64,000 nt of DNA from Candidatus Woesebacteria bacterium (GCA_016700095.1 CP065002.1:304463-368462); one strand, 5' to 3'; shown: positions 582-44,656, counted from the first letter of the stretch. Notes: generated by a model from the letters alone, not told the origin. A program made the numbers and translations.

Positions 582-3500
582 TTGTTAACACTGCCCATGA
601 GAACAAAATTAAATAGCTCCCAGAAAATAGATATTATAAATAGGGCTCTTTCGGGTGGATCAGTCACTGAAATCTGCAAAGATATAGGTATATCTAGGGT
701 TTTGTTCTATAGATTGCTTCAGAGATACAAAAAGTATGGAGAAAAAGGATTAGAAGAACGTAAAAAAGGTCGCCCCAGAAAGTATAGAGCACAAAAATTG
801 ACAACTAATATTCAAACAACAAACAATATTATCTCGGCTCATGAGAGATTGCGCATGGTAGAAGAAGTTGTTAATGAAGGAAGGCGTCCATCAGTGATTG
901 CAAAGAAGTATCAAGTTTCAAGACCAACGTTATATAAATGGATCAAAAGATATAAAAAGTCTCAACAAACAAGAATTCATGCTGTCGAAAACAAAACCCC
1001 CAAGTATTCGAGGTACTATAGGCAAGCTCCCGAATTATATGAAGATGCTGTTTTGTCACTGGTTACTAAGTTTCCTGAATATGGTGTAAGAAAAATCGTT
1101 GCCAATCTTCCTCAAATTGGTAAAAAACCAATTCTTGGGCATCATGGAGTACAAAACGTTTTACAGCGCCACAATTTATCAACTCTAGATAGGCGTATGG
1201 CGTATGCCAAATCTCAAGAGACTGTTATCACAAGTTCGATTTCTGGTGCTCTTTCCAAAATCAATAATTTCTTTGCTATTCCTTTGGAAACTCGACAAAA
1301 GGTTGTGCGCTTTTCGGCAGTGTTTTTTTTAACATCTTTTTTCACCGTAGTCCTTTTTGGCATGGGTGGAGCTGTTACGACTACTTTTATTGGAGTTCCG
1401 CTCGTAAAACAAATCGGTTTAACTCTTGCGTTAGTTGCTCTATTTATGGGGTCGGTATTTTTTGTATATTCACTTAAATACTATCTTACACTTGTCATTG
1501 TACTTTCGTTTTCTCAACAAGAAGATACCAATACGCGCCTGCGCGGAAACATTCTCCATAAATTATTAGGCTTAGTTGATGAAAACACCGATAAATCTAA
1601 ATTGGATCAAAAGCAAGCTGTAGGTTTAACTCCAAATTTAGACCATATCAAATTATCTCGTTACCCGTTTATTTCTGTTCAGATTCCTTTCTATAACGAA
1701 AAAAACGTAGCTGAGCGCGCAATTGCGGCAAGTACAAATTTTGATTACAAAGGTGATTATGAAGTTATTGTTTGCGATGATTCCACGGATGAAACTTTTG
1801 AAATAGTTAGAAATTACCAAAAACAGTACTTAGCAAAGAATTGCCAGTTAAAAATAAGTAAGGGTGATGGCTGGGATATGTCCGAAGTTGAAGTCAGACC
1901 CGGAGTAATTCTTAAACACCTTCACAGAACAACGCGGAGTGGATATAAAGGTGCTTCGTTAAAACTTGCATTGACCTTGGTTGATAAAAGAACTGAATTT
2001 GTAAGTATTTTCGATGCAGATTTCGTGCCGTATCCCGACAGTTTGGATTTATTTTTGAAATACTTTAAATCACAAAACGGTGGATCTGAAAATTACACTT
2101 CAAATAACATTGCCGCAGTCCAAGGATATCAATGGCATGTATTAAATAAATCAGAAAACTGGATAACAAGGGGAGTAAGAAGTGAATATGCAGGAAGTTA
2201 TGTAATAGAAAGAAGTGGTCAAGAAATTTATGGAGGATTAAAACACATTTCAGGAAGTGTATATATGATTAGGCGCGATGTGTTGGAAGAAGTAGGATGG
2301 AGATCTTCGATCACCGAAGATTATGAGCTTACGCTTCGGTTATACAATGCAGGATACAAAGTAGTATATACCCCATACATTCAGGCTCCAGCTGAGTGTG
2401 TTTCCACTTTGAAAAGGTTAATCAGACAAAGGATGAGGTGGGCAGAAGGACACAGTTTCAATGTCAAACTTATGTGGAAGAAATTATTAATTGGAAGATG
2501 GGAGTTGGCTAATAGTTCATCCACTGACTCGCATCAAGTTCATTCTTTGCATGGTACTAAAATGATGCGGGATGACAAAAAGGTATTCATTCCTAGTCCT
2601 CTAACCGTGGCTGAGAAAGTTGAATTTGTATTTAACATTCCTTACTACCTTCAAGCATTTCTATTTCTAATCGGGACTTTTGCCTGGTTACTCTCAGAGG
2701 CTGTATTCCAGGTAAGACTGCCTTTCTGGACTACTGTTTGGGGTTGGAGCCTCATCCTTACCAACATGTTTTCCTTGCCTTTGGTTAACGCAGTCGGCCT
2801 TTTCCTGGAAGAAAGTGAGGAAAGAGACTATCTTGGGCTTTTGTCATTTGTGGCACTTAGTTATATATTGGTTCCATTTCAGGCTTATTCGTCAGTTAAG
2901 GGTTTTATTCAAAAAGAAGAAGGGCCCTGGTTTAGAACTCCCAAAACTGGAAGAATTACAGACGTTTTCGCCCGAGGCAGGTTTTATCGTTTTATATCAG
3001 GAATTTTGCCGAAAAATTCAGGTAATAGAAATGAGGCACTAAGCGACAGTCTAAATACTGGTGCCTATTCACAAATGTCCAACTCGTATTTGTCGATGGT
3101 TACGGCAAACAATATTTTTAACACCTTTTCGATAAAACGAAAAACACAACGGTGGGTAGGTAAGCTTGCCTTGACTTCAATGGTTGCAGTTTCAATGTTG
3201 ATTGTGAGTTATGCACCGTATATCCCAAGCGGAAAGGTGAGTGTTGCAGCAGCTAATACGGGGGCAATACTGGCAGATAAAGCAATTGACAGCGACCAAC
3301 CAGTTGTGAATAAAGCAGGTAAAGCGCTCAATACAAATAATTTGGAAACAAATAAGGATGGTTTTACATTAACCTCTGACAATAAAGACTTCAAGATTAC
3401 AGATTCACCAAGTTTTCGTTTACAAGCCAGAACGAATTTCAAAGATAGGTTGGCAATAAATTTCGGCAACATCTTTAAAGGCAAAAATGAAAAGAAGGCG

Positions 3501-6500
3501 AGAATAATTAATGCTAAGGTAGTTAACCATAAAGGCAATGAATATGACGTTGGAATATTAGACGATAAGAATGGATATGAACTAGTTGTTGATTCCAATA
3601 ACTTGTCTCCGGGGTTATATGATTTAGTTGTTGAAGACAATCTGGGTAATAGTATTGCACAAGATTTTAGTTGGGGAGTGCTGGCAATTAACACCAACAA
3701 ATCGATTTACACGAAAGGGGAGAATGCCGAGTTGTCGTTTGCCGTACTCAATGAAGATGGGGAAATGGTATGTGATGCAAAATTAGAATTAGGAATTAGA
3801 AATTCGGAATTAGGAATCGATGAAACACTGTCAACCAATGACGGCTCAATACGTGTGACTCCCGGGTGCAATAGTAAAGAAATGTTATTAACTCCCGATT
3901 ATGAAGCGGAATATAAATTGGGGAGTATGGGTATTTATGAACTTACTTTGACTGCTACTACACATAATGGAAGCTATACAATTACTGACTCAATTGAGGT
4001 TCGAAAATCGGTAGAGTTTGACATAGAGCGTATTAGTGCGACACGTATTTATCCACTTTTAACGTACCCCGTGATATTTAATGTTATCCCGGAAAAGGAC
4101 TTTCAAGGAGTAATCACAGAAACGGTTCCTGCAGACTTTGCGATTGTTCGGATTACAGACGAAGAACTGAAAAATTATAGTACTAAAGAAAACAGCGTTG
4201 GTTCAAGTAAATTCTTAGACATCAAAAAACAGGGTGGTGTAGGGATAATTGAATGGCAGGTAAATTGGAAAAAAGGAGAAACTTATCATTTTGGCTATAA
4301 ATATGATGCTCCGGATAAAAGCCCAGCTCTTTACACTTTGGGTCCTTTGCAAATTGATGATTTTAGTGAAGCAAGAGTTTGGCAGATAGCGGTGGATGCA
4401 ATTTCAGGTATAACCGCCCGCAATTATGCGGTTGAAAATAGTAGTGATACAACCATAGCGGTATCTCCGGATGCTGCTATTACTGTCGGAAAAATTGCGA
4501 TCGTTTCGTGTGTGACTGATAATACAGCAACATCTGATGGGCCATCCACAGACCATTCATTGAGCGATACTGACGGGCATACTTGGAACAAGGTATTTGA
4601 AGAAACTGATTCTGCCGGTGCTGCTGCTGATGGTTCAACCACCTCATTGTGGTGGACGAAGGTTACAAGTGAAATCGGGACAGGTGATTCAATTACTTTG
4701 ACGTTAGGAACTGCCCGATCGGACAAGATTATTGCAATTGTAGAAGCTACTGTCGGAGCGGGTAATACCTTTGTCGCGATCCCTTCATCAGCTATCGATC
4801 ACTCAAATTCAGCTACCTCTTTGTCTGATGTTCAATCCGGGCTTACTAACCGGGAATATCTATTTTTTGGCTTGTTTGGAGCGGAAGGTGAAGACACTGC
4901 TAAAACTCCTATTGCCAACTATACCGAACAACACGACCGAGTGAGTACGACAACAGGTACAGCTGCCGTCAATGTGCAAATGCATGTCGGCACCCGAATC
5001 CTTACAGGGACTGGTGACACTTGGACAAGTTCGGCAGTCACTTTTACTAATGGTATCCAGTCTCTGACAGCATTTTATGAAGTTTCAAGTACCATAACTG
5101 TTTCCGGAAATGTATATAATTTTGGTACTTCGAGTGCTCTTACTGAATGTGATGCAAGTGGAGCAACACATGAATTAAGTTTGAGAGTTGGATCAACAAC
5201 CTATACCACAAGTTGTGATGCTTCAGATTCAGGTGCATATTCCTTCACTTCAGTTACACCTCCCTCGGGTGGATCGGGGATGGTGGTTTGGATTGATGAT
5301 GCCGAAGCTTCCGAGACAGATGGTGCAGCAGTTATTCAATACGATGGATCAGGTGATTCAACCGGAAATTCTTTTTACGATGATGCCGTGACTATTCTCA
5401 CTGATGATGGCAGTGGTGTCACGATTGATATGATGGATGCGTATGACAGTGGCGGTGATGCAGACATTCCCTATACTGCTACAAGTGGATCCCCCGATAC
5501 GCTTACGGTTTCCGATAATTATACATTGCTTATACCTTCTGGTGAGGTGTTTGCTCCGGGAGGGAATTTAAATAACGGTTCGGGAGCCGGAATAGATAAT
5601 ATTAATATATCAGGAACCTATACCGCAGCTACCGGGGAATCGATACTCGTTTCCGGTACCTGGACCCAGTCTGGTACCTTCACCTCAAGTACTTCCACTG
5701 TCACCTTTGATGCTCCTGGTGCTACAACTGAGGATATTGTTACAACAGGAAGTGGAGCATTTAACAATGTTGTCTTTAATGATGGGGAAGGTGGTGCCAC
5801 TTGGGAGATTGAAGATCCTCTGGATGTGGATGGTAACTTTACCATAACAGGTGGGACAGTGGATGTTGTAAGTGGAGAAGATAATCAGATTAACGTAGGA
5901 GGAAACTGGACCAATGATGATACTTTTGTGGAAAGAAGTGGAAAGGTAGTCTTTGATACTTCAACTACTGCTACCCTAGATAGTAACTGTTCCGATGTGG
6001 GTACTTGTACCAATGAGAATTTCTACGACCTGGAACTATCCAAAGCAAGTTCGGGGAATACCGTTACTTTGACTAACTTTGGTATACGGGTAACTAATAC
6101 CTTAACCCTCACTACGGGGACTTTGGTGCAAGGAGCATATAATGTCCGGGTTGAGGGGGCAACTGCAGTATCAGTAGCCTCAAATGGTATCTGGAGTAAT
6201 ACTTCAACAGGAGACGTGATCCTTGGTGGCTCCTTTGCCAATAGTGGCATAGTAACCATGCAGGGAACAACAAGCGCTTGCGGAGAAACTGATGCAATTT
6301 CAATCACCTCAACTTCAGGTGGAAGTCAAAGGAGTTGGACTAGTTTGGGAGGTACTTTCAACATGAATGATGTTTCGGTCCAGGACCAGGGAGGAAGTGC
6401 TGCAATTACAGTTTACTCTGGTACCAACGTCAGTGGTAACAATTCCAACTGGGTGTTTGAAGATTGTGTTACCAGTTCTACATCTTCTTCTGCTACAGGA

Positions 6501-8333
6501 CATTCATTCCAAAGAAAGACATTCTACGATGATGAAAATGAAACCTTCTGGAGGTTTTACCATGATGGTGATGAAGTTGACATAGAATATTCTAAAGATA
6601 GTGGTGATACCTGGAGTTCTACTACTGCCTTGGCATATGACACCAATGACTTTTCTGTCTGGTGGAAAGCAATCACGGTTGGAGAAACCACCACTGAATA
6701 TGTATGGATGGCAGTTACCACGTCAGATGATATCCTGGTCAGACGCGGGACATTAGGATCAACATCAGTCACCTGGGACAGTGAAGCCAATGTGGTTTCA
6801 CTTAATGGCACAGGAGCATCTGACACCTACTCATACCCATATATTTCGTTGGATGATGCAAACTATATGTGGGTGGGAGCAAGACATTACAATGGAACTA
6901 ACTATACGTATAAGACAGTAAGAAGTGATGCTTCTGACACCGGTAATGCCACCTGGAGTGGAGTAGGCTTTGGTTCTACTGTTCCCGTATCCCAAGTATC
7001 AGCTGACCAAACAAATGCAAATGTCTTTGGCAACATTGTTCCACTTAATGGCCAAGACATGTATGCAGCCTTTGTCAGTAACACTCTTCTTCAGGGTTGT
7101 GTCTGGGACCACAGTGACGCTGCCTGGGAAGATAGTGATGGGGCAAGTTGTGTTAGTACCGGTGGAAGTGCACCTGTATTTCGTGGAGAATCTTCTTCAA
7201 CTTTTACAACAGCAGCCAGCGTTGTGGTAAATAAACCGACAGGGACAGTCGATAACGACATTATGCTTGCAATTATTTATAAGGAAAATACCGCAGCAGT
7301 AACAGCACCATCAGGCTGGAATTATATTGATGGAGAAACACCGACGACTGATCATGATGTAATTGTTTACTGGAAAAGGGCGAGTTCGGAAGGTAGTAAC
7401 TACACCTGGAGTTGGACAGGAAGTACTTGGAGCGGGGGAGCGATTATGTCATATAGTGGTGCGATAACAACAGGAGATCCGGTAAATACTTATTCCGCCA
7501 ACAGCGCCTCATCAGGACAAACCTTGACCGCAACGGGTGTGACGACAAGTGTTGACAACACGACAATTGTTGCTTTGGGAGCACATTGGAATACGGGTAC
7601 GTATTCAGGACCAACCGGATATACTGTTCGAGCAACACCTCAATCTATGAGGCTTTCTGACAAAACCCAAGCCTCTGCGGGGGCTACAGGAGATGCTGTC
7701 ATGACAACATCTGCAAACAGTTCATCCTGGACTGCACATTTGGTTGCACTCAAACCTGCAGGTACACCCGGGAGTAGAGATGCAATTGATACTGTACCAA
7801 GTGGATTAAGCAAAAATATATCGGCCGTTGTTGATACTACCAATTACGATGTTCACCTTCTTTTTGTAGACGATGAATCAACAGATCAGGTAAGTTACAA
7901 AAGATGGGACAAGATAAACCAGGAATGGGATGTAACTGCAACCCTAGTTGCAGGTGGAACAAGTGATACCGATGCTTACGTATCCCTCTCGTATGATACG
8001 GATGCAAGTGATCTTTACGCAATCTGGATAGACACATCTACAAATCACATCTTCTACACAGCTTGTGACATATCAACACAGTGCAGTTTGGCCAGTGACT
8101 GGATAGTAGGAGTAGAAGAGGAGATAGACTGGCATACAGAAACACAACCAACCAACTTAACCAGTAACTACTCAAGTGGAACCAATGTCTTTGCTCAGTG
8201 GTCTGATGGATCAGGTTCACCATACTCTGTTGAGTGGGATATCATTGTGGTGCCGGAGTGGATTTGGTTAATTATTGTTGCCGGTCCGATTTTGCCACTT
8301 ATGGGTAAATTTAGAAAGAAAAGACATCAATGA
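582..8333 (+). CDS. Giant fusion protein (2583 aa): N-terminal transposase-like HTH modules, processive GT2 core, TM bundle, huge surface region, C-terminal VPE-hydrophobic-basic tail
   Basis: Uninterrupted 7.75 kb ORF. HTH motifs: 'GGSVTEICKDIGISRVLFYRLLQRYKKYG' and 'RRPSVIAKKYQVSRPTLYKWIKRYKK'. GT2 motifs: 'IVCDDSTDE' (DxD), 'FDADFVPYPD', 'ITEDYELTL' (TED), 'QRMRWAEGH' (QxxRW). TM helices before and after the GT domain. About 1700 aa T/S/G/D-rich C-terminal region. Tail 'VPEWIWLIIVAGPILPLMGKFRKKRHQ'. Confidence 0.85.
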   Translation: MLTLPMRTKLNSSQKIDIINRALSGGSVTEICKDIGISRVLFYRLLQRYKKYGEKGLEERKKGRPRKYRAQKLTTNIQTTNNIISAHERLRMVEEVVNEGRRPSVIAKKYQVSRPTLYKWIKRYKKSQQTRIHAVENKTPKYSRYYRQAPELYEDAVLSLVTKFPEYGVRKIVANLPQIGKKPILGHHGVQNVLQRHNLSTLDRRMAYAKSQETVITSSISGALSKINNFFAIPLETRQKVVRFSAVFFLTSFFTVVLFGMGGAVTTTFIGVPLVKQIGLTLALVALFMGSVFFVYSLKYYLTLVIVLSFSQQEDTNTRLRGNILHKLLGLVDENTDKSKLDQKQAVGLTPNLDHIKLSRYPFISVQIPFYNEKNVAERAIAASTNFDYKGDYEVIVCDDSTDETFEIVRNYQKQYLAKNCQLKISKGDGWDMSEVEVRPGVILKHLHRTTRSGYKGASLKLALTLVDKRTEFVSIFDADFVPYPDSLDLFLKYFKSQNGGSENYTSNNIAAVQGYQWHVLNKSENWITRGVRSEYAGSYVIERSGQEIYGGLKHISGSVYMIRRDVLEEVGWRSSITEDYELTLRLYNAGYKVVYTPYIQAPAECVSTLKRLIRQRMRWAEGHSFNVKLMWKKLLIGRWELANSSSTDSHQVHSLHGTKMMRDDKKVFIPSPLTVAEKVEFVFNIPYYLQAFLFLIGTFAWLLSEAVFQVRLPFWTTVWGWSLILTNMFSLPLVNAVGLFLEESEERDYLGLLSFVALSYILVPFQAYSSVKGFIQKEEGPWFRTPKTGRITDVFARGRFYRFISGILPKNSGNRNEALSDSLNTGAYSQMSNSYLSMVTANNIFNTFSIKRKTQRWVGKLALTSMVAVSMLIVSYAPYIPSGKVSVAAANTGAILADKAIDSDQPVVNKAGKALNTNNLETNKDGFTLTSDNKDFKITDSPSFRLQARTNFKDRLAINFGNIFKGKNEKKARIINAKVVNHKGNEYDVGILDDKNGYELVVDSNNLSPGLYDLVVEDNLGNSIAQDFSWGVLAINTNKSIYTKGENAELSFAVLNEDGEMVCDAKLELGIRNSELGIDETLSTNDGSIRVTPGCNSKEMLLTPDYEAEYKLGSMGIYELTLTATTHNGSYTITDSIEVRKSVEFDIERISATRIYPLLTYPVIFNVIPEKDFQGVITETVPADFAIVRITDEELKNYSTKENSVGSSKFLDIKKQGGVGIIEWQVNWKKGETYHFGYKYDAPDKSPALYTLGPLQIDDFSEARVWQIAVDAISGITARNYAVENSSDTTIAVSPDAAITVGKIAIVSCVTDNTATSDGPSTDHSLSDTDGHTWNKVFEETDSAGAAADGSTTSLWWTKVTSEIGTGDSITLTLGTARSDKIIAIVEATVGAGNTFVAIPSSAIDHSNSATSLSDVQSGLTNREYLFFGLFGAEGEDTAKTPIANYTEQHDRVSTTTGTAAVNVQMHVGTRILTGTGDTWTSSAVTFTNGIQSLTAFYEVSSTITVSGNVYNFGTSSALTECDASGATHELSLRVGSTTYTTSCDASDSGAYSFTSVTPPSGGSGMVVWIDDAEASETDGAAVIQYDGSGDSTGNSFYDDAVTILTDDGSGVTIDMMDAYDSGGDADIPYTATSGSPDTLTVSDNYTLLIPSGEVFAPGGNLNNGSGAGIDNINISGTYTAATGESILVSGTWTQSGTFTSSTSTVTFDAPGATTEDIVTTGSGAFNNVVFNDGEGGATWEIEDPLDVDGNFTITGGTVDVVSGEDNQINVGGNWTNDDTFVERSGKVVFDTSTTATLDSNCSDVGTCTNENFYDLELSKASSGNTVTLTNFGIRVTNTLTLTTGTLVQGAYNVRVEGATAVSVASNGIWSNTSTGDVILGGSFANSGIVTMQGTTSACGETDAISITSTSGGSQRSWTSLGGTFNMNDVSVQDQGGSAAITVYSGTNVSGNNSNWVFEDCVTSSTSSSATGHSFQRKTFYDDENETFWRFYHDGDEVDIEYSKDSGDTWSSTTALAYDTNDFSVWWKAITVGETTTEYVWMAVTTSDDILVRRGTLGSTSVTWDSEANVVSLNGTGASDTYSYPYISLDDANYMWVGARHYNGTNYTYKTVRSDASDTGNATWSGVGFGSTVPVSQVSADQTNANVFGNIVPLNGQDMYAAFVSNTLLQGCVWDHSDAAWEDSDGASCVSTGGSAPVFRGESSSTFTTAASVVVNKPTGTVDNDIMLAIIYKENTAAVTAPSGWNYIDGETPTTDHDVIVYWKRASSEGSNYTWSWTGSTWSGGAIMSYSGAITTGDPVNTYSANSASSGQTLTATGVTTSVDNTTIVALGAHWNTGTYSGPTGYTVRATPQSMRLSDKTQASAGATGDAVMTTSANSSSWTAHLVALKPAGTPGSRDAIDTVPSGLSKNISAVVDTTNYDVHLLFVDDESTDQVSYKRWDKINQEWDVTATLVAGGTSDTDAYVSLSYDTDASDLYAIWIDTSTNHIFYTACDISTQCSLASDWIVGVEEEIDWHTETQPTNLTSNYSSGTNVFAQWSDGSGSPYSVEWDIIVVPEWIWLIIVAGPILPLMGKFRKKRHQ

Positions 8334-8914
8334 ATCAGAAAAAAGTATTTAAAGATATATTGATTGTGACGGCAATTGTATTGTCGCTACTTCCCGTTAT
8401 TGTAACTTTTAGTGCAATACTAACCACGCTTTTCGACAAATTAAGTTGGTATGTGTGGCTGCAACGCGAAGTTGTACCCGTGGAATCCAGAATGGTTGCG
8501 GTATTGGTGAAGGTTGTCGGTATCGATGCTCAAATTACATCACATATTAATTTTTCCATGGTGTTAACCAGGGGTGAGACAATAATTCCAGTTCAATTGG
8601 AATGGAACTGTCTTGGTTGGCAAAGCATGATTTTACTTGTTACTACATTTGTAACAGGTTTGCGTGGGCGCTACAAATTGTCGTCGAAAATTGAAACAGT
8701 GATTATTGGCATACTCGGGACGTTTCTGTCAAACCTTTTTAGAATGGCTTTTATTGTTACCCTCGCTTATTACTGGAATAGCTTCGCAGCGATGATAATT
8801 CATGATTATTTCGCAAGCTTTATTGCCGTAGCTTGGATGCTATTTTTCTGGTGGTTTAGCTATAGCTATGTGCTTGATGAAAAAATAGAGAGTAACTTAA
8901 ACGAAGTGAAATAA
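8330..8914 (+). CDS. Mini exosortase/archaeosortase-domain membrane protein (194 aa), XrtG-like candidate
   Basis: Start overlaps the stop of the upstream giant (ATGA at 8330-8333). 4-5 predicted TM helices. Conserved with the 14085 paralog: 'WNCLGWQS' (Cys), 'GLRG(R/N)Y' (Arg), 'SNLFRMAF'/'INIFRLVF' (N-x-x-R), 'HDY/HNY', and C-terminal 'SYSYVL(D/E)EK'. Confidence 0.55.
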   Translation: MNQKKVFKDILIVTAIVLSLLPVIVTFSAILTTLFDKLSWYVWLQREVVPVESRMVAVLVKVVGIDAQITSHINFSMVLTRGETIIPVQLEWNCLGWQSMILLVTTFVTGLRGRYKLSSKIETVIIGILGTFLSNLFRMAFIVTLAYYWNSFAAMIIHDYFASFIAVAWMLFFWWFSYSYVLDEKIESNLNEVK

Positions 8915-9335: not shown

Positions 9336-9941
9336 TCACTCAATACTTATGTAAACAATAATTAGTAATAAAATATCTATAACAATAAATATTACTAAAG
9401 AAATAATAAAGGGGAGTGGAACACCAAAATATTTTTTAGTTGCACTAATACTTTTTCGATTATTTGTGTTTGTATTTTCTAAATGATTATTTTGCGAATT
9501 TTCAGTAAATGTTTCTGCAGCATTTATGGAAATGGTTTTATTTGTAGATATATTATTTTGTGTTAGTGGAATATTTGAAGTTGTGGTGCTGGTAGTATGA
9601 CCCATATCTACTATGGGGCTATTTGTTACACCAGAAGGATTAAAGTTAGTTGTAACATTATCGGATAGTATAGATGTTTTACTAGATTCCTTTTTAATAT
9701 TTTGCTCATTATTAGACGATACAATATTTTCTGAACTGTTTATCGTTTTATCGGAAATAGCATGCACGTATTTATTGCCAAATAATTTATCGAGATCTTG
9801 TTTGGAAAAATACCTGTGTCCACCGGGAGAGCGATGTGTGTCAATTTTTCCTGACATCTCCCACCTTCTTAGAGTATCAACAGAAACCCCCAAGTATTTA
9901 GCGGATTTTCCTATTCCTAGCTTGTCTTCTGTAATTTGCAT
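9336..9941 (-). CDS. MerR/excisionase-type HTH protein with N/S/T-rich linker and C-terminal TM anchor (201 aa)
   Basis: N-terminal 'SAKYLGVSVDTLRRWEMSGKIDTHRSPGGHRYFSKQDLDKL' is a typical MerR-type HTH. It is followed by a low-complexity Asn/Ser/Thr region and a C-terminal hydrophobic helix 'FIISLVIFIVIDILLLIIVYI'. Divergent from the 10008 giant gene. Confidence 0.55.
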   Translation of the reverse strand: MQITEDKLGIGKSAKYLGVSVDTLRRWEMSGKIDTHRSPGGHRYFSKQDLDKLFGNKYVHAISDKTINSSENIVSSNNEQNIKKESSKTSILSDNVTTNFNPSGVTNSPIVDMGHTTSTTTSNIPLTQNNISTNKTISINAAETFTENSQNNHLENTNTNNRKSISATKKYFGVPLPFIISLVIFIVIDILLLIIVYISIE

Positions 9942-10007: not shown

Positions 10008-13000
10008 GTGGTGATACATTTGAAAAACAAAAGGCTATTGACCTTGGTCCCACATGGTGCTTACACTTTATATGAACCTAAAAATTGGTATATGCAAAAG
10101 ACTGCCCTAACCGCAAAACAAAGATTGGCATTAATGGAATTGGTTTATAAATATAATGAATCAGTTACGGTTTGTTGTAAGAAATTTGGTGTTTCAAGAT
10201 TTACGTTTTACAAATGGGCTAAGTTTTATAGTGTAGGGTTATCGAGAAATGAAAACTTAACCAATCTTCGAGATAAAAAACCAGCTACAGTATCTACTCT
10301 TAATGCAACTCCATACGAGGTACAAGAGCAAATAAAACGTATTGCTGCAGAGAAACCTGATTCTAGCAAATACGAGATTGCAAAAGAGCTTAGAGATCGT
10401 CTAGGAGAAAAAGCAGTTGGTGTTCATGGAGTATATAATGTATTAAAACGTTCAGACTTGACCACTCCTGAAGCAAGAAAGGAATGGCAGTTATTTGTTC
10501 AAGCGAAAAGTAATATTGTACTTACAGCACCCCAAAGGCTTGAAGTTATAACCAGATCAGAAAAATTAAACATCCCAGTAACTGTTGTTTGTCGTGATTT
10601 TGGAATTTCTAGACAAACATATTATAAATGGAAAAGAAGATGGGAAGAAGGAGGACAAGATATTGATACACTAAGAGATAAAAAACAGCAGTATGATCGT
10701 AGAAAATTTAGAATCGATAGAGAAAAAGAAAAAGCAATCCTTTCGGTAATAATAGAAACACCGGATTTATCAAAATATAAAATCGCAGAAAAATTAAGAG
10801 AACTTGGATATGCTGTTAGTCCTCACGGGATATACAATGTCCTCTTGAGGAACGGATTGAACTTACCTGAAGGCAGAATGAATTATGCAGCAAATCATTC
10901 GCAAACAATTGAAACTCCCTCAATTGAATGGACAAACCGCATTAAGTCATCGTTGGAACAGTTTTTGCCCACACTAGCGCCAGCGCCACCTCCAGTATTT
11001 AATATTATAATTAACTTCACTAAAACTTTTCTTGCTTCATCTGTCTTTGCCTTAGCCGTTTCTTATTCAAGTGTGTGGTGGTTGAATTTTTTACTAACCC
11101 AAACAACACATGTAGCTATTGGATTATTCTTTGCTACACTAGCTTTACTTACTGGATCGATATTTTTCCTTTATTCCTTAAAATACTATATAACCCTTGC
11201 GGTTGTACTTTCTTACTCGAAAGACCAAAATACTATCGGTATAGATAGTACAACTCCGTTAAAACAAAAAGGATTAATATCAAGGATAATCGGGTTTAAC
11301 AATAATACTAGTGTTGATGAAAATATTCCTGTTGGGTTAACATCGGATTTAAGTGGGATTAATATTTCTAAAAAACCATTTGTCTCAATACATATTCCTT
11401 TCTATAACGAAAAATATGTAGTAAGGCGATCAATCGAAACGGCTGTTAATTTTGATTATCAGGAGTATGAAATTATTTTATGCGATGACTCGACTGATGA
11501 TACTTCTACTATTATTAGAAACTATCAAATAGATCATTTACCAATTGGTGAAAAACTTGAAGTCGTTAGTGGTAAGGGATGGGAGATGGCAACAGTCGAA
11601 ATTCGTCCCGGTGTGTTTCTAAAACATCTTCATAGAATATCAAGGGGAGGATTTAAAGGCGGTGCATTAAAAATTGCCTTGGAATTGGTTGATCCAAGAT
11701 GTGAATTTATATCTGTATTTGACGCAGACTTTGTCCCATATCCAGATACTATAAACCTATTTCTTAAATACTTTAAAATACAAAACGGTATGTCGGAAGA
11801 CTATGCCAAAAGCGCAGTCGCCGCAGTCCAAGGCTATCAGTGGCATGTTCTTAACAAATCAGAAAACTGGATAACCAGGGGAGTAAGAAGTGAATATGCA
11901 GGAAGCTATGTAATTGAAAGAAGCGGTCAGGAAATTTACGGAGGCCTAAAGCATATCTCGGGAAGTGTATATATGATTAGAAGGGATGTATTAGAGAAAG
12001 TGGGTTGGAATACGTCTATTACCGAGGATTATGAATTAACACTTAGGCTTTATGATGCCGGTTACAAAGTAGTCTACACCCCATACATTCAAGCCCCAGC
12101 TGAATGTGTATCTACCTTAAAACGCCTAATCAGACAAAGAATGCGATGGGCAGAAGGACACAGTCACAATGTAAAACTGATGTGGAAGAAACTTCTATTT
12201 GGAAGCTGGGAAGAAACTGGTGGTTTATCTAACACTCCACACCAGGTTCTTGCTTCACAGACAACAAAATTGATGCGGGATGGCAATGCCGCTTATAGTA
12301 GTGTAGCGACATTGTCAAATTCTAGAAGTAGAATATTTGTTCCATCTCCACTTACCATTGCAGAAAAGATTGAATTTCTTTTCAATATGCCTTACTACCT
12401 TCAAGCATTTCTATTTCTAATCGGGACTTTTGCCTGGTTACTCTCAGAGGCTGTATTCCAGGTAAGACTGCCTTTCTGGACTACTGTTTGGGGTTGGAGC
12501 CTCATCCTTACCAACATGTTTTCCTTGCCTTTGGTTAACGCAGTCGGCCTTTTCCTGGAAGAAAGTGAGGAAAGAGACTATCTTGGGCTTTTGTCATTTG
12601 TGGCGCTTAGTTATATATTGGTTCCATTTCAGGCTTATGCTTCTATCAAAGGCTTTCTGGAAGACAAAGAAGGTGGGTGGTTTAGAACTCCTAAAACAGG
12701 AAGAATTACTGATGTATTTACAAGAGGCAGATTTTATAGGTTTATACAAGGAGTATTGCCCAGAAGAGGGGGTCAGCCTGCAGTAGCTGAAGCAGGTGTT
12801 TCTCAAGCTTATCTTGCACTTAATTCTGCCAACAATCAATTCAATTCATTTAGTATTAAACCCAAGAAAGTGTTCTGGTTAGGAAAAGCTTCGCTGGCTT
12901 TTGTTTTAATTGTTGTTATGTTATTGAACTCTCTGGCTTTTAGAGTAAAACCAGCTGAAGCTTGGTATGGTACAGAAGGTTGGTCGTATAGGATTAAACT

Positions 13001-14063
13001 GACTGTAAAAAACGGAAAAGTTGATGCAGATTTGTCAAACTTTCCGGTTTATGTAAATTTAGATGATTTGCCTGATGCTACTTTTTGGGCTCATGTTAAA
13101 TCTCTATGTGCTGATGTAAGAGTAACAAATTCTGGAGGATCAACAGAGCTTCCTATTGAAATTGTTTCCTGCGACACGACTGCAAAAACGGGTGAGATGT
13201 ATTTTAAAGCTGACAGTTTGGCAGATTCAACTGATACTGATTTTTATATTTATTATGGTAATTCGGGTGCTTCTTCCTATGAAGTTACCGACACCTATGG
13301 CAGAAATAACGTCTGGACTAATGGCTATGGTGGAGTTTGGCACATGGGCGGCGGAACATTGATCGATTCCAGCGGGAATGTCGGTAATTCAACAACACAA
13401 ACCGGTACGGAATATACGTCGGGAAAAGTAGGTATAGCAACAGATTATTCGGGATCACAGAGGTCAATTATGCCGACTGCCACGACAATAGACGAAGATG
13501 TATTGGATAGCTTAACTTATACCGTTTGGGTTAATAGTGATTCTACTTCGTGGGGCAGGCAAATGGAAAAAAGTAATCAATATTTTCTTTTGGGTAATTA
13601 CGCTGGGACTGGATCGGCCGGTCCTCTACTGAAAATTAGCGGCTCCAATCAGGTTGCGACTGTAGGTACTTTGAGTACCGGAACATGGTATCAGGTTGGT
13701 GGTAGATATTCTTATTCTGGCGGGACTACTGGAGTTCTTAACGCTATCTTGAATGGTAATATAAATGCTACAACAAGCAATCTATCTAATTACATAGATT
13801 CTGCAAATACTGGCCTGTATGTCGGTTCAGACGATTCAGGTGGTTATTTTAATGGTAAGATGGATGAGCTTCGAATTGCGTCTGTTGTTAGAACGACCAA
13901 TTGGCTATCAACCGAATACAACACTCTTAATGACACATCAACTTTTTATTCTCTTGAAGCGGAAGAGGAAGTGCCGGAGTTGGTTATTTTATTGCTGCCG
14001 TTAGCAATCTTGATTCCTTTTGTAGTTAAATATCATGAAAAAAGAAGGAGGCTAGTCGTATAA
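10008..14063 (+). CDS. Fusion protein paralog 2 (1351 aa): two transposase-like HTH, processive GT2, TM bundle, LamG-containing surface domain, VPE-CTERM-like tail
   Basis: HTH: 'VTVCCKKFGVSRFTFYKWAKFY' and 'VTVVCRDFGISRQTYYKWKRRWEEGG'. GT2: 'ILCDDSTDD', 'FDADFVPYPD', 'ITEDYELTL', 'QRMRWAEGH'. LamG signature: 'YFNGKMDELRIASVVRTTNWLSTEYN'. Tail: 'VPELVILLLPLAILIPFVVKYHEKRRRLVV'. The true start may be the downstream Met at ~10092. Confidence 0.85.
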   Translation: MVIHLKNKRLLTLVPHGAYTLYEPKNWYMQKTALTAKQRLALMELVYKYNESVTVCCKKFGVSRFTFYKWAKFYSVGLSRNENLTNLRDKKPATVSTLNATPYEVQEQIKRIAAEKPDSSKYEIAKELRDRLGEKAVGVHGVYNVLKRSDLTTPEARKEWQLFVQAKSNIVLTAPQRLEVITRSEKLNIPVTVVCRDFGISRQTYYKWKRRWEEGGQDIDTLRDKKQQYDRRKFRIDREKEKAILSVIIETPDLSKYKIAEKLRELGYAVSPHGIYNVLLRNGLNLPEGRMNYAANHSQTIETPSIEWTNRIKSSLEQFLPTLAPAPPPVFNIIINFTKTFLASSVFALAVSYSSVWWLNFLLTQTTHVAIGLFFATLALLTGSIFFLYSLKYYITLAVVLSYSKDQNTIGIDSTTPLKQKGLISRIIGFNNNTSVDENIPVGLTSDLSGINISKKPFVSIHIPFYNEKYVVRRSIETAVNFDYQEYEIILCDDSTDDTSTIIRNYQIDHLPIGEKLEVVSGKGWEMATVEIRPGVFLKHLHRISRGGFKGGALKIALELVDPRCEFISVFDADFVPYPDTINLFLKYFKIQNGMSEDYAKSAVAAVQGYQWHVLNKSENWITRGVRSEYAGSYVIERSGQEIYGGLKHISGSVYMIRRDVLEKVGWNTSITEDYELTLRLYDAGYKVVYTPYIQAPAECVSTLKRLIRQRMRWAEGHSHNVKLMWKKLLFGSWEETGGLSNTPHQVLASQTTKLMRDGNAAYSSVATLSNSRSRIFVPSPLTIAEKIEFLFNMPYYLQAFLFLIGTFAWLLSEAVFQVRLPFWTTVWGWSLILTNMFSLPLVNAVGLFLEESEERDYLGLLSFVALSYILVPFQAYASIKGFLEDKEGGWFRTPKTGRITDVFTRGRFYRFIQGVLPRRGGQPAVAEAGVSQAYLALNSANNQFNSFSIKPKKVFWLGKASLAFVLIVVMLLNSLAFRVKPAEAWYGTEGWSYRIKLTVKNGKVDADLSNFPVYVNLDDLPDATFWAHVKSLCADVRVTNSGGSTELPIEIVSCDTTAKTGEMYFKADSLADSTDTDFYIYYGNSGASSYEVTDTYGRNNVWTNGYGGVWHMGGGTLIDSSGNVGNSTTQTGTEYTSGKVGIATDYSGSQRSIMPTATTIDEDVLDSLTYTVWVNSDSTSWGRQMEKSNQYFLLGNYAGTGSAGPLLKISGSNQVATVGTLSTGTWYQVGGRYSYSGGTTGVLNAILNGNINATTSNLSNYIDSANTGLYVGSDDSGGYFNGKMDELRIASVVRTTNWLSTEYNTLNDTSTFYSLEAEEEVPELVILLLPLAILIPFVVKYHEKRRRLVV

Positions 14064-14084: not shown

Positions 14085-14657
14085 ATGAATAAAAATAATC
14101 AATTAACTAAAGATACTTTCAAACTATTATTAGTTTTATTGGTGATTGTTCTTTTAATATTACCCTTTGCGACGGCATTTAATGAATTTCTAACTGAGGT
14201 TGTGGAAAATATTGGATTTTATATGGTCATTCAAAGCACCCTTGTGCCGTACATGAGTATGCTAACGGCTGCAATATTGAATATTTTGCCCGGACTCGAA
14301 GTGGGAATATTACCTTATGGAGTGGTAGTTAACGGTATTGACGTGCGTATCACCTGGAATTGTTTGGGTTGGCAAAGCTTTTTGCTTTTTTTTGCATCTT
14401 TATTTGTAGGACTAAGGGGAAATTACTCTGGAAGTTCTAAAATTCAGGCTGTCTTGTTTGGTTTATTGGGTACATTTATCATCAATATTTTTCGTTTGGT
14501 ATTTACAGCCGCACTAGTTGTATGGTGGAGAGGATTGTTTGTTATTCTATTTCACAATTATTTTTCGACCTTTATCGCTATACTTTGGCTTATACTTTAT
14601 TGGTGGATTTCTTATAGCTATGTGTTGGAAGAGAAAGATGGGGAGATTAATAAATAA
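14085..14657 (+). CDS. Mini exosortase/archaeosortase-domain membrane protein paralog (190 aa)
   Basis: 21 bp downstream of the giant gene. Multi-TM. Shares 'ITWNCLGWQSFLL', 'GLRGNY' and 'NIFRLVF' with the 8330 paralog. Confidence 0.55.
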   Translation: MNKNNQLTKDTFKLLLVLLVIVLLILPFATAFNEFLTEVVENIGFYMVIQSTLVPYMSMLTAAILNILPGLEVGILPYGVVVNGIDVRITWNCLGWQSFLLFFASLFVGLRGNYSGSSKIQAVLFGLLGTFIINIFRLVFTAALVVWWRGLFVILFHNYFSTFIAILWLILYWWISYSYVLEEKDGEINK

Positions 14658-14861: not shown

Positions 14862-15167
14862 TTACAATAGACTTCGAAGTCGAAAGTCGGGAAAGAGTGT
14901 TTTTTGCAGATTTAGGTCATGACCTTTGGCTACCCTAATTGCTTCAAGAATTGTTTTTATGCCTGCGATGTTAAGTTTGCGTTCAAATGATAAATATTTA
15001 AGAAACTGCAAATCGTTAAGGTCTGCGACACTAAACATTCTTCGTTTGGTTTTGGTGCGGTGGGGAGTTAGAAGTCCCGCTTTTTCATAAGCCATGATAG
15101 TTCGTATATGCAATTCAAGCAGTTTTGCCGCTATGGAAATAGTCAGAATTGGTTGATCGTTATTCAT
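14862..15167 (-). CDS. MerR-family transcriptional regulator (101 aa)
   Basis: 'LTISIAAKLLELHIRTIMAYEKAGLLTPHRTKTKRRMFSVADLNDL' is a MerR-type HTH plus the start of a dimerisation helix. Confidence 0.6.
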   Translation of the reverse strand: MNNDQPILTISIAAKLLELHIRTIMAYEKAGLLTPHRTKTKRRMFSVADLNDLQFLKYLSFERKLNIAGIKTILEAIRVAKGHDLNLQKTLFPDFRLRSLL

Positions 15168-16113: not shown

Positions 16114-19100
16114 ATGTCTGCCCGATGTAAAAGTAAATATTCTCCAAGTGAAAAAGAAACAATAGTTCTGGAGTGCATTGGTAATAATAAATCAATAACA
16201 AAACTAGCCAAGAAGTATAAAGTGTCTAGGAAAACTTTATATTCGTGGCTGAAAAGATATAAAAACAGCGCAAATAGAAATAAAAATAAAGCCCTGGTGA
16301 ATGCTTATGTCAAAGGAAAAGATCATCCTAAAAGCAAAGTTAGTTCTATTAAATCTAAGGTTATTCGTATTGTAAGCGCACATCCAGAGTGGGGAGCGCG
16401 CTCTATAAGTAATGAACTAAAAAAGCAAGGCTGTGATATTGGATTTTTTGCAGTGCATACCTTTCTACAGTCGATGTCGATTGAAAGAAGAGATTTAAGA
16501 GAGAGTTTTGCCACTAATTATACAGGCCCCGGGAGATATATGCCTGATGTGAAGCTCGAGATTATTAACAAGTTTAGGCAGGGAGAAACTGTTTCCAGTC
16601 TTTCTGACAGTTACGCGATATCGCGAAAGACGCTTTATCAATGGATCAGAAAGATACAAAATATATCAGATGTTTCAAAATACGATTTGGCGGATGCTTA
16701 TGTATCGGGAGAGAAACATCCCTTCGCTGTTTATCCAAAAATCGAAGCTCACCTACTTAGTATTGTCAAAAAACACCCCGACTATTCGATTCACAAATTA
16801 GCCGAACTACTGCCTGTGTCGTCATGGACGGTTTGGTCGACGCTTAGCCGAAACGGTTTGTCTACTTATACAGAGCGTCAGCGGTTTGCAAACCAAGGTG
16901 GCGTGATAGGGAAGACGGACTATTCTCCACAGGTTAGAAGTACCCTGGAGCAGTTCATGCCCACTTTGGCACCGGCTCCGCCTCCGGTTTCTTCGTCCAG
17001 AATTAAAACGAATCTTAAACCATCATATAAACAACTTGCACGTCACTTCTTATTTTCCGCAATATCTTCGTTAATTGTTGCCTTAACTACTCGATACTGG
17101 GTGTCAATTTTAATATCTGCGAGCTCGTTTTCGGAAGGAATAGGCCTGGTACTGGCTACTGTTGCACTTTTCTCCGGAGGGATTTTCTTCCTCTACTCAC
17201 TGAAATATTATTTAACCTTAGCCGTTGTTCTTTCCTACTCGCAGGATGAGAAAGAAAATGCTGACGAGAAATCTCCCACTAAATTTATTTCATGGTTATT
17301 GGGGAAAAATGGGTCAAGCCATAATTTCGGCAAGAGTGGTTTAGAGCCGAACCTCGAGCATGTAAATCTAAAAAATCATCCTTACATCTCAGTCCAAATA
17401 CCATTTTTCAACGAGAAATATGTAGCCGAGCGTGCAATTAGTGCGGCAATTAATTTTGACTACAAGGGCGATTACGAGGTTTTGGTTTGTGACGACTCAA
17501 CCGATGAAACAACACAGATAATCAGGAGTCTTCAACAAAAATATTTACCCGACAACAAAAAACTAAAAATATTTATTAACAAAGAAGAAGGCTGGGAATT
17601 GTCAACAGTTGAGGTGAGACCGGGTGTCTTACTTAAACATTTACACAGGACAAGCAGGTCCGGATTTAAAGGAGGTGCTCTAAAAGTAGCGCTTAATTTA
17701 GTCGACCCAAGATGTGAATTTATTACCATTTTTGATGCCGACTTTGTACCATATCCCGATTCGCTTGATCTTTTCTTAAAGTACTTTAAGTTGCAAAACA
17801 ATGGCTCGGAGGATTATACACATAGTGATGTTGCTGCAGTTCAAGGATATCAGTGGCATGTTCTTAACAAATCAGAAAACTGGATAACCAGGGGAGTAAG
17901 AAGTGAATATGCAGGAAGCTATGTAATTGAAAGAAGTGGTCAAGAAATTTACGGAGGTTTAAAGCATATCTCGGGAAGTGTATATATGATTAGACGTGCG
18001 CCCTTAACCGAGGTTGGTTGGGATACTTCAATTACAGAAGATTATGAACTTACGCTTAAGCTTTACGAAAAAGGCTATCGAGTAGTCTACACCCCATATA
18101 TCCAAGCTCCGGCTGAATGCGTTTCCACCTTGAAACGCTTGATTAGACAAAGAATGCGATGGGCAGAAGGACACAGTCACAATGTAAAACTGATGTGGAA
18201 GAAACTTCTATTTGGGAGTTGGGAAGAGAAAGAGTCTGTTGGTAGTTCAAACAGCAAGTGTTTTGTCCCAAGTCCACTTACTGCGGCAGAAAAGATTGAA
18301 TTTCTTTTCAACATGCCTTACTACCTTCAGGCGTTTTTGTTTTTAATTGGAACATTTGCCTGGTTACTTTCGGAAACAGTTTTTCAAGCACGTCTTCCTT
18401 TCTGGACCGTTATTTGGGGTTGGAGCCTCATCCTTACCAACATGTTTTCCTTGCCTTTGGTTAACGCAGTTGGCCTTTTCTTGGAAGAAAGTGAAGATCG
18501 TGATTATGTCGGGTTGGTAAGTTTTACACTTCTTTCGTATATAGTTGTTCCATTCCAAGCATATGCATCATTAAAGGGATTCCTCGAGAAAGAAGAGGGT
18601 GGATGGTTTAGAACTCCTAAAACAGGAAGAATTACGGATGTGATTGCCAGAGGCAGATTTTATCGTTTTATATCCGGAATTTTGCCCGGCAAAGAAAATG
18701 TCAGTTCACTTGATACAAATTATTTGTCAATGGTTACGGCAAACAACATTTTCAACACCTTTTCAATAAAGCGAAAAACACAACGGTGGGTAGGTAAACT
18801 TGCCCTAACTTCGATGGTTGCGGTTTCTTTGTTAATTGTAAGTTTTGCACCATATATCCCTATCGGAAGAAACGGTGTTTTAGCGTTTGATGCAAACTCG
18901 ATTGTTTCACCTGGGGAGGCGAAACATACTTCGGATTTTTCTTTTGAAAATGAAACTAATAATTTTTCGATAACGGGACTTAGCCGTGATTTCAAAGTCG
19001 ACGAGGTACCGGGTTTTCATTTAGATGTAAAAACCGCACTTGTCGAACGCGTGCGTATTAACTTCAATCAAGTTATCGGTAAAGAGTTATCAAAAACAAT

Positions 19101-32582: not shown

Positions 32583-33380
32583 ATGGCAAAGCAAGTGGTT
32601 AGAAATTGGGGAATAGAAAAGATTGAATTGTCACCGTGGTACTTCAATTCCCTTAGATTAAAATATGCACTCGAAGCAATAAAAGGTACAAAAGGAAAGC
32701 TTTTAGAAGTGGGGGCGGGTGCGGGAGCTTTTTCGAAGTCCATCAAAAAGCACTGTCCGGACTTGGAAGTAACTGCATCGGATATTGAGACATCACTTTT
32801 GGATTTAGGTAAGGGAATCTGCAACGAAATAAATTTTGTCAAAGCAGATGTGTGTAATCTTCCTTTCAAAAATAATGCCTTCCAAGCGATTGTATCCTTT
32901 GATGTCTTTGAACACATTGACAACCCACACAAGGCGATCAATGAAGTTTATAGAGTATTGGATCGAAAGGGAGTATTTCATTGCGCAACACCGATTGAGG
33001 GGAATATTCTGACTATTCACGGAATAGCTTCTAAATTGAAACTCAATCCCAAAGAAAAATACGCCGGACATGTTCAGCGATACGATACGACAAGTCTTAT
33101 TAAACATTTTTCTGATGCTGGATTTGAAAACATTAAAGTTAATTACAGTGGTCATTATTTTTATCAACTGATGGATTTTTCGTATTTTCTGACTTTAACT
33201 ATTTTCAAAAAGTTTCCCAACAATACCTTTGAAGGCTATATAGAAAATTTACCCAGTGGTACCGGAAAGTCTGGCATGTCGTTATTAAGATCGCTTCTTG
33301 CAACTGTCTGTTTTGTGGAATCATTAATCCTTAAAAACTTTCCCGGACAAATTGCTCATTACACTGCAAGTAAAAAATGA
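32583..33380 (+). CDS. Class I SAM-dependent methyltransferase (265 aa)
   Basis: Motif I 'LLEVGAGAGAFS'. Downstream 'VSFDVFEHIDNP'. Confidence 0.75.
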   Translation: MAKQVVRNWGIEKIELSPWYFNSLRLKYALEAIKGTKGKLLEVGAGAGAFSKSIKKHCPDLEVTASDIETSLLDLGKGICNEINFVKADVCNLPFKNNAFQAIVSFDVFEHIDNPHKAINEVYRVLDRKGVFHCATPIEGNILTIHGIASKLKLNPKEKYAGHVQRYDTTSLIKHFSDAGFENIKVNYSGHYFYQLMDFSYFLTLTIFKKFPNNTFEGYIENLPSGTGKSGMSLLRSLLATVCFVESLILKNFPGQIAHYTASKK

Positions 33381-36586: not shown

Positions 36587-36622
36587 ATAAATGAGAAAGT
36601 GCGACCTGACAAAACGCCTTAA

Positions 36623-42270: not shown

Positions 42271-42272
42271 TT

Positions 42273-43765: not shown

Positions 43766-43808
43766 AAACAATAAGAAATATAACATTAAGCAAATATTTA
43801 ATGATTAT

Positions 43809-44579: not shown

Positions 44580-44656
44580 GTCCTATCTTACATATTGACC
44601 GCGTGGGCTTGTAGTGAGACAGTTAGTGTATGAGTGAGAAGTGTATTTTGGTGGCG
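44580..44656 (+). repeat. Duplicated leader and 5' end segment (copy 2, functional start of the REC gene)
   Basis: Near-identical to 43809..43885, with about 5 mismatches. Confidence 0.8.

Follow-up and report, generated by a model that had tools for sequence, protein, structure and literature searches.

Exosortases are widespread in bacteria, yet none has a defined reaction, a defined acceptor or an explained reason for its link to polysaccharide loci. The family is defined by C-x-G, N-x-x-R and H-x-x-x-G, motifs located at the outer ends of three transmembrane (TM) helices in succession (Haft 2006, PMC1569441). In ArtA of Haloferax volcanii, mutagenesis identified the conserved Cys and Arg as essential (PMC9263693). 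The annotated target class of the XrtG system is Firmicu-CTERM (PMC12854382). Here, we analyze a 64,000-nucleotide stretch of Candidatus Woesebacteria bacterium (GCA_016700095.1 CP065002.1:304463-368462; G+C content, 39.8%), which we refer to as the window. Two small genes in it, called mini-exosortases or sortases 1 and 2, follow two giant genes whose products combine a family 2 glycosyltransferase (GT2) with a tail resembling a sorting signal. Judging from their sequences, both small genes encode members of an unnamed exosortase/archaeosortase subfamily with about four TM helices, widespread in Microgenomates-group bacteria within the candidate phyla radiation (CPR) and predicted to be active. 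We consider it likely that each is the dedicated processing enzyme of the giant encoded just upstream.

Two giant-sortase gene pairs

The giants, their candidate sorting tails and the sortases are arranged as follows.

582..8333, + strand: giant 1, 2583 amino acids (aa); N-terminal transposase-type helix-turn-helix (HTH), two TM helices, processive GT2 (FDADF, QRMRW), more TM helices, Ser/Thr-rich ectodomain of about 1670 aa and putative sorting tail, as judged from Pfam and NCBIfam matches, motifs, composition and hydropathy
8250..8330, + strand: putative sorting tail of giant 1; VPE, hydrophobic helix WIWLIIVAGPILPLMG, basic cluster KFRKKRHQ; the same tripartite domain as in 48 aligned tails
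8330..8914, + strand: mini-exosortase 1, 194 aa, ATG start; C94 at 8609-8611, N135-x-x-R138 at 8732-8743, H158 at 8801-8803 (TIGR04178, invariant motifs, AlphaFold2)
10008..14063, + strand: giant 2, 1351 aa from a GTG start (1323 aa in the NCBI annotation); HTH, processive GT2, DUF2341-containing ectodomain, putative sorting tail
13971..14060, + strand: putative sorting tail of giant 2; VPE, LVILLLPLAILIPFVV, KYHEKRRRLVV
14085..14657, + strand: mini-exosortase 2, 190 aa, ATG start; WNCLGWQS at 14355-14378, NIFR at 14484-14495, HNY at 14553-14561 (TIGR04178)
16114..26643, + strand: giant 3, 3509 aa; its tail is of the type seen in giant 1, of which it is a recent paralog; no sortase gene of its own

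A preliminary description of this sequence had placed both small open reading frames (ORFs) directly behind giants 1 and 2; they lie there on the + strand, and their positions and lengths are as it gave them. It had also described the genes as translationally coupled. This is plausible for pair 1, in which the start codon (8330-8332) and the stop codon (8331-8333) overlap as ATGA, but pair 2 is simply closely spaced, with a gap of 21 nucleotides (nt) and no overlap. The two sortases are 38.8% identical. No third sortase copy, remnant or pseudogene was found in the window, including the surroundings of giant 3, where the next gene encodes a membrane protein resembling 6-pyruvoyl-tetrahydropterin synthase (PTPS)-related proteins, not a sortase. 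Giant 3 is 82% identical to giant 1 over 700 aa and 78% identical over its last 228 residues; sortase 1 probably serves it in trans.

Sortases 1 and 2 belong to the exosortase/archaeosortase superfamily

Sortases 1 and 2 scored 41.0 and 37.0 bits, respectively, against TIGR04178, the NCBIfam signature of exosortases and archaeosortases (cutoff, 23). All of the distant relatives tested, fusions included, also pass this model, and they pass no other. The Pfam family PF09721 is recorded for many close homologs; sortase 1 falls below its threshold (19.5 versus 25.7 bits), and sortase 2 has no match. Patescibacteria, among them Woesebacteria, Chisholmbacteria and Saccharimonadales, supply about 130 sortase clusters at 90% identity, all 185-205 aa long. 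When 1.84 billion cluster representatives were searched by full HMMER with a profile, 465 relatives emerged at E <= 1e-3, 64 of them at E <= 1e-30.

The preliminary description listed four shared motifs and likened them to a Cys/Arg/Arg catalytic set. WNCLGWQS occupies residues 92-99 of sortase 1 and 91-98 of sortase 2, and GLRG, N-[LI]-F-R and H-[DN]-Y are common to both proteins. W92-N-C94-L-G96-W-Q-S, N135, R138, H158 and Y160 are invariant in 37 close homologs. In a set of 67 near-full-length sequences, each standing for a 50%-identity cluster, C94 is found in 66, G96 in 67, R138 in 65 and H158 in 61; residue 162 is Gly in 29, Ser in 15 and Ala in 13, sortase 1 itself reading H158-D-Y-F-A162. 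WNCLGWQS, N-x-F-R and H(D/N)Y are thus upheld as shared motifs, but the Arg of GLRGxY (R112) occurs in just 21 of the 67 representatives and is replaced elsewhere by Q, S, K or G. The conserved triad of this subfamily is Cys/Arg/His, as in bacterial exosortases, and not Cys/Arg/Arg, which corresponds to the residues tested in H. volcanii ArtA (C173/R214/R253; PMC9263693).

When fused and canonical-length relatives with 18-41% identity are aligned, the sole invariant columns are C94, G96, G127, N135, R138, H158 and W174. The canonical-length relatives show CSG or CTG, N-x-x-R and H-x-x-x-G at the columns of sortase 1 C94-L-G96, N135-L-F-R138 and H158. The Cys of WNCLGW, for which the preliminary description had asked for an alignment with the family active-site Cys, falls in their C-x-G motif. 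Because both proteins exceed the TIGR04178 cutoff and this Cys lies at the catalytic position of the family, the proposed kinship with exosortases and archaeosortases holds.

An AlphaFold2 model of sortase 1 (predicted local distance difference test score [pLDDT], 84.3; predicted template modeling score, 0.75) has a TM helix at its N terminus, one more helix, a small beta unit and another three helices. Helix 97-110 is immediately preceded by C94, R138 falls toward the end of helix 117-148, and H158 is close to the beginning of helix 151-181, a predicted placement in which all three residues would point toward the same, outer ends of the last three helices. The model and the hydropathy profile fit an N-in/C-in topology with a basic cytoplasmic loop.

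No named Xrt or Art subfamily, including XrtG, which is weighed below, reached its cutoff with the window proteins or their distant relatives. The best partial match was archaeosortase C (TIGR03762, the PEF-CTERM partner), with 28.6 bits versus 100 for sortase 1 and none for sortase 2. NCBIfam holds many models of 150-190 aa (XrtM, XrtH, XrtS, XrtR, XrtX, XrtY, XrtF and XrtG; ArtB and ArtF; pacearchaeosortase); therefore, small size in itself is not new. Nor is the generic family name, which is already in public annotation: an NCBI protein 100% identical to sortase 1 is named "exosortase/archaeosortase family protein."

The giants end in a candidate sorting tail

All three giants have an N-terminal transposase-type HTH and a processive GT2 (Pfam Glyco_trans_2_3 and Glyco_tranf_2_3, with partial similarity to PgaC, CelA and NodC) bearing the motifs FDADF (D-x-D) and QRMRW (Q-x-x-R-W). 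By hydropathy, hydrophobic helices flank the GT2 module on both sides. The ectodomain-like region spans 343-2540 aa, with about 24% Ser plus Thr and few Lys or Arg residues, and includes DUF2341 in giants 2 and 3. No equivalog model tried for the GT2 was reached (PgaC, 73-77 bits versus 422; CelA, 60-69 versus 699). An AlphaFold2 run on residues 300-1351 of giant 2, meant to settle topology and tail packing, was confident for the GT2 core alone, the ectodomain and tail having pLDDT below 50. In a Foldseek search, the best matches of this core were BcsA (E = 2e-15), a processive mannosyltransferase and hyaluronan synthases.

The candidate sorting tail pointed out in the preliminary description is present on every giant: all three end in VPE, a hydrophobic helix and a basic cluster (giant 1, VPEWIWLIIVAGPILPLMGKFRKKRHQ; giant 2, VPELVILLLPLAILIPFVVKYHEKRRRLVV; giant 3, VPENIWFLMLLSPLFTKPKHRKK...). 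The tail of giant 3 (26497..26640) reads, from 26497 onward, VPENIWFLMLLSPLF and then TKPKHRKKIK; its helix is shorter, and it has an extra Lys-rich extension of about 30 aa. In an alignment anchored at the Pro-Glu, P and E are present in 48 of 48 tails, V or I precedes them in 42, and Pro recurs at +11 in 32 and at +14 in 31, with the basic run beginning at about +18. The consensus is [VI]-P-E-[NK]-h-[WL]-L-[LF]-L-[GP]-L-A-P-[FL]-L-P-x-h-h-[KR]n. This is the tripartite layout of PEP-CTERM domains, namely, a Pro-Glu motif abutting a TM helix, a basic cluster and a position at the extreme C terminus; the motif abuts the helix without a spacer in PEP-CTERM and PGF-CTERM as well (Haft 2023 preprint). 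An NCBIfam scan of ten tails at E <= 10 returned no CTERM sorting-domain model, Firmicu-CTERM included, and just one of the ten showed subthreshold similarity (E = 0.07-0.4) to the C termini of PEP-CTERM protein models. The tail is very probably the sorting signal of the giants.

A variant appears in a locus labeled Dormiibacterota (L050, 1..1254). There, the gene just before that of a distant sortase homolog (33% identity) overlaps it by 4 nt and encodes a protein whose end reads ...SIVLAESPLPAAGLALLAPLAAAALLGRRRRRQM, an Ala-Glu version of the tail in a high-G+C lineage.

At the opposite end, the giants' N termini (582..~1300, 10008..~10900 and 16114..~16900) contain one or two transposase-type HTH domains (HTH_28, HTH_23, IS481/IS630-like). 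The fusion of this DNA-binding module to a glycan synthase is found in 20 of 21 complete homologs. The HTH could act as a membrane-tethered regulator.

Tail and enzyme are linked across loci and in fusion proteins

By scanning one genome per species, we obtained 51 related loci, mostly from Microgenomates-group CPR bacteria, and tails were sought in the 64-kb window and in the 10-kb flanks of these loci. The search pattern demanded PE, at least 11 uncharged residues and at least three Lys or Arg residues within the last 60 aa of ORFs of at least 100 aa. The tail is carried by 49 of 889 ORFs, whereas internal matches (7 in 207,039 residues) would lead one to expect about 2. All 49 lie on the strand of the sortase. 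The ORF directly upstream of a sortase usually ends in [V/I/T]-P-E, a helix and a Lys/Arg cluster, at gaps of -11 to +8 nt and often with an ATGA overlap. Of the tail-bearing ORFs that are complete and reach 1000 aa, 21 in all, 20 combine HTH, GT2, ectodomain and tail.

A search with the HTH/GT2 body (E <= 1e-10) retrieved 58 giant homologs. Of these, 32 end in the tail, two more were missed because of truncation or the pattern, and many others are partial. In the loci retrieved by body, a mini-sortase lies downstream of each giant that bears the tail, separated from it by one gene at most (three times in L054 and once each in L055, L056, L058 and L059). Three HTH-GT2 paralogs of about 1000 aa lack the tail, and no sortase follows them; two of these have tetratricopeptide repeat (TPR) and YfhO-like proteins there instead, a set that looks like a sister cassette. 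In L057 10001..16993 and L058 4383..11578, the tail-less paralogs share the ending GRF[RK]KK.GN[IV]FQE.GD.W[RK][DE]LL.KL.G...LD.LPV.

Tail and enzyme also meet in single polypeptides. P0192 (946 aa) and P0234 (1227 aa) consist of GT2, ectodomain, EVPEN, TM helix, basic cluster and sortase module, and P0196 is a fragment of this type; in P0159, P0184, P0185, P0189, P0213 and P0217, a sortase module is joined to an ectodomain with a PG[IM]VV[P/S/D]E tail. In the fusions of both orders, Glu proves to be the best conserved residue of the tail, and the GT2 proves not to be obligatory. For both window pairs, the closest sortase ortholog and the closest tail come from the same locus (L004 for pair 1, L028 for pair 2). 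The giant 2 tail has its nearest relatives in L028 and L029, the loci with the sortases closest to sortase 2.

Many cassette-bearing records are titled "uncultured Gammaproteobacteria" or "Pseudomonadales" (L001, L006-L008, L012, L014, L020, L023, L025, L028-L031, L033-L036 and L051), and one is titled "Bathyarchaeia" (L046). These are probably mislabeled bins; therefore, the taxonomic range of the cassette is uncertain at its edges.

A model for tail processing and its alternatives

The family membership, the conserved catalytic motifs, the conserved tail and the linkage of tail and enzyme by position and by fusion are the observations behind the proposed role as dedicated processing enzymes, from which we infer cleavage, its site, the topology and the acceptor. 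The giant would insert into the membrane with its HTH and BcsA-like GT2 in the cytoplasm and its Ser/Thr-rich ectodomain outside. Its last helix would span the membrane with the Lys/Arg cluster inside, which would place the invariant Pro-Glu at the outer membrane face. There, Cys94, Arg138 and His158 would lie near the outer ends of the last three sortase helices, and the enzyme would recognize [V/I]-P-E and the Pro-x-x-Pro helix. Cys94 could then cut at or just after the motif via a thioester intermediate, removing the C-terminal helix, and the new C terminus of the ectodomain would pass to an envelope acceptor, such as a lipid head group or a glycan, and not to water.

Several points weigh against this model. 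Hydropathy leaves the number of TM helices after the GT2 module ambiguous. That the ectodomain lies outside and where the tail helix sits are predictions, the giant 2 model being unreliable beyond the GT2 core. We found no solved structure of the exosortase fold from which active-site geometry could be taken, and His158 is substituted in 6 of the 67 cluster representatives. The tail pattern was designed after examples had been seen. Sortase and tail distances are correlated (Mantel r = 0.20, p <= 2e-4, n = 35), which we count as weak support because coinheritance of tandem genes would give the same result. Finally, sorting would bring no obvious benefit, since the TM helices of the GT2 would keep the giant in the membrane after tail cleavage.

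The small proteins could instead be nonproteolytic subunits of the synthase, with the giant's C-terminal helix serving as a permanent docking anchor, as between BcsB and BcsA, and no cleavage taking place. The likeness of the GT2 core to BcsA, a substrate that is membrane bound whether cleaved or not and the existence of stable enzyme-tail fusions all agree with such a role. The order of GT2, large outside domain and C-terminal TM anchor recalls BcsA-BcsB fusions. However, a structural partner has no need for near-perfect conservation of the exosortase Cys/Arg/His across sequences with 18-41% identity. In its three-part layout, the tail fully matches cleaved sorting signals, its invariant motif lying at the membrane face, and substrates without a GT2 (the P0159 group and L046) bear the same tail; we therefore regard docking as unlikely. 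Simple hydrolysis is a more serious alternative, if a somewhat improbable one: the sortase would clip the helix to unlatch or activate the ectodomain or the synthase without transferring it to an acceptor. Exosortases and archaeosortases are not known to be one-step transpeptidases (Haft 2023 preprint), and with the GT2 helices anchoring the giant, a new anchor is not obviously needed. In contrast, ArtA substrates become lipid linked (PMC6098224, PMC9263693), and the Cys/Arg/His triad parallels transpeptidating sortases (Haft 2006, PMC1569441). By analogy with ArtA, we favor transfer of the new C terminus to an envelope acceptor over hydrolysis.

Adjacency to the giants might also reflect incidental operon packing, with the sortases acting on unlinked substrates elsewhere in the genome, as many exosortases serve many dispersed targets (Haft 2006, PMC1569441). 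Given that the adjacency is kept in at least 40 loci from several candidate phyla, that fusions arose independently in two orientations and that the tail-less paralogs have no adjoining sortase, this seems highly improbable from the window and the related loci covered. Equally hard to credit is a CPR version of the Firmicutes XrtG system (XrtG, XrtG-associated GT2 and PTPS-related membrane protein), the family proposed in the preliminary description. The claim that the window holds the XrtG gene set stands as far as the cast goes, with a small exosortase, a GT2 and PF10131-type membrane proteins, a PTPS-like gene often following the sortase directly, but no XrtG-system model is reached. TIGR03110 (XrtG) gives 16.6 bits versus a cutoff of 102.75 for sortase 1, no match for sortase 2 and 19-36 bits for the distant relatives. 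TIGR03111 (XrtG-associated GT2) gives 22.9 and 18.6 bits versus 363.95 for the giants' GT2 and no match for giant 3. The tails match neither Firmicu-CTERM nor any other CTERM model, no XrtG-system NCBIfam model matches the PTPS-related proteins of the window, and the best partial matches are ArtC and CrtC. The large proteins at 33377..39616, earlier called YfhO-like, match Pfam PTPS_related (PF10131) and not YfhO. Their homologs recur in 3-4 loci alone; thus, the likeness to XrtG is one of cast, not of orthology. The accompanying remark that XrtG has no known substrate is outdated, as a Firmicu-CTERM sorting-domain protein is now annotated in that system (PMC12854382).

Dedicated processing of each giant by its neighboring sortase could be carried one step further, into a self-contained coupling of protein and glycan. 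The sortase would join the C terminus of the ectodomain to the polysaccharide that this polypeptide's own GT2 makes or to a glycan made by neighboring GT-C-like or GT4 enzymes. We give this extension little credence. If true, it would offer a mechanistic reason for exosortases always being in exopolysaccharide loci and a two-gene system for identifying an exosortase acceptor, and the N-terminal HTH would couple surface assembly to transcription.

Accessory genes and other features of the window

Three further genes lie next to the giants.

26670..28094, + strand: 474-aa polytopic membrane protein, PTPS-related-like; an accessory gene that recurs in the cassette (weak PF10131 match, 25.4 bits versus 26.4)
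9336..9941, - strand: MerR-type HTH protein with a C-terminal TM helix, divergent from giant 2; possible cassette regulator (Pfam MerR)
14862..15167, - strand: small MerR-type HTH protein, 101 aa, upstream of giant 3 and divergent from it (ORF and sequence)

Giant homologs are present in 39 of the 51 loci, many of the other loci being cut by contig ends. The 474-aa protein has homologs in 16 loci and lies directly downstream of the sortase in L017, L019, L027, L032, L036 and L048. Methyltransferases recur in at most 11 loci, GT4 enzymes in 9, an STT3-like membrane protein in 8 and MerR-type regulators in 7-9; homologs of the small MerR-type protein occur in 7 related loci. MerR-type genes also stand divergently just upstream of giants in the unrelated loci L054 (9335..9877), L055 (8892..9200) and L056 (8608..8928), a recurrence that suggests a conserved regulator of the cassette. 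The window locus has four class I methyltransferase genes (32583..33380 and 40838..43097), and P0131 (384 aa) is a fusion of a sortase module with an S-adenosylmethionine-dependent methyltransferase. The recurrence of methyltransferases hints at methylation of the glycan or the substrate. A protein with Wzy_C and TPR domains (46653..48788) was considered as a conserved component of the system and set aside, having no homolog in the 51 loci.

The remaining observations concern the rest of the window. Two copies of a 79-nt direct repeat, 91% identical (43804..43882 and 44575..44653), lie 771 nt apart; since the second copy overlaps the start of a response-regulator ORF (44630..45004), the repeat is probably a duplicated promoter or 5' region. 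A 23S-rRNA-IVP/bAvd-like four-helix protein (48929..49480, - strand) is encoded immediately behind the gene (49509..55286, - strand) of a 1925-aa protein that contains DUF2341 and seven LamG repeats, and similar small genes are found near giants in L045 and L059. A diversity-generating retroelement at the bAvd-like gene was rejected: there is neither a reverse transcriptase nor a template/variable repeat pair. Three 154-aa antisense ORFs (60821..61285, 61776..62240 and 62730..63194, + strand) are spaced exactly 955 nt apart opposite the minus-strand ORFs 55279..61347 and 61265..63934, and this spacing therefore points to tandem repeats of about 955 nt (about 318 aa) inside these giant minus-strand genes. 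Tandem Repeats Finder reported no arrays in the window at a score of at least 200 and a period limit of 500 nt, and Rfam gave no matches in it at gathering thresholds.

Implications for annotation and experiment

The subfamily and its sorting signal, the one-to-one pairs, the fusions and an HTH-bearing processive glycan synthase as a substrate were found in no annotation or literature searched, and that literature contained no relevant paper on exosortases in CPR/Patescibacteria. The tail is named by no curated model or public annotation that we checked. Public names of giant homologs ("DUF2341 domain-containing protein," "glycosyltransferase," "helix-turn-helix domain-containing protein" and "hypothetical") do not mention a sorting domain, and recognizing it would allow such proteins to be reannotated. 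A strict one-to-one tandem pair, sometimes a single polypeptide, with a substrate fused to a processive glycan synthase, offers a two-gene system for heterologous expression. CPR bacteria would gain a pathway of surface assembly as well; the episymbiotic way of life of these bacteria is believed to be mediated by their envelopes and giant surface proteins.

Comparison with described systems

The giants share with BcsA-BcsB synthases a GT2 core bearing D-x-D and Q-x-x-R-W, with BcsA as the best structural match. We take their large outside domain and single C-terminal TM helix to resemble BcsB and BcsA-BcsB fusions. They differ in that BcsB homology was not detected, in the added N-terminal HTH and in a C-terminal helix that appears to be a sorting signal with a dedicated sortase.

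Exosortase/PEP-CTERM systems (EpsH/XrtA; Haft 2006) share with the window the TIGR04178 superfamily and the C-x-G, N-x-x-R and His motifs, a Pro-Glu motif directly against a TM helix with a basic cluster after it, and ties to polysaccharide-synthesis genes. However, EpsH/XrtA has about eight TM helices, whereas the window sortases have about four in roughly 190 aa. The CPR host lacks an outer membrane, and its tandem pairing is one to one, while PEP-CTERM systems are one to many. The window substrate is a polytopic HTH-GT2 synthase instead of a secreted protein with a signal peptide, and no PEP-CTERM model recognizes its tail.

The XrtG/Firmicu-CTERM system is similar in its small exosortase (187-aa model), its monoderm host and a cassette with a GT2 and a protein bearing a C-terminal sorting domain (PMC12854382). 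In XrtG systems, substrate and GT2 are separate proteins, whereas in the window they form one polypeptide, and all XrtG-system hidden Markov models fail widely. XrtM, XrtH, XrtS, XrtR, XrtX, XrtY, XrtF, ArtB, ArtF and pacearchaeosortase (models of 150-174 aa) are likewise miniature, each defined by its own C-terminal signal, but the window proteins and their distant relatives reach the cutoff of none.

ArtA/PGF-CTERM of H. volcanii is the only experimentally studied relative: a C-terminal TM helix is removed after a short motif in a Cys-dependent manner, and the product is lipid anchored. ArtA is larger, its motif is PGF and not VPE, and its third tested residue is Arg253 where the window family keeps His. 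Whereas ArtA serves several dispersed substrates, including the surface-layer glycoprotein, the pairing in the window appears to be dedicated.

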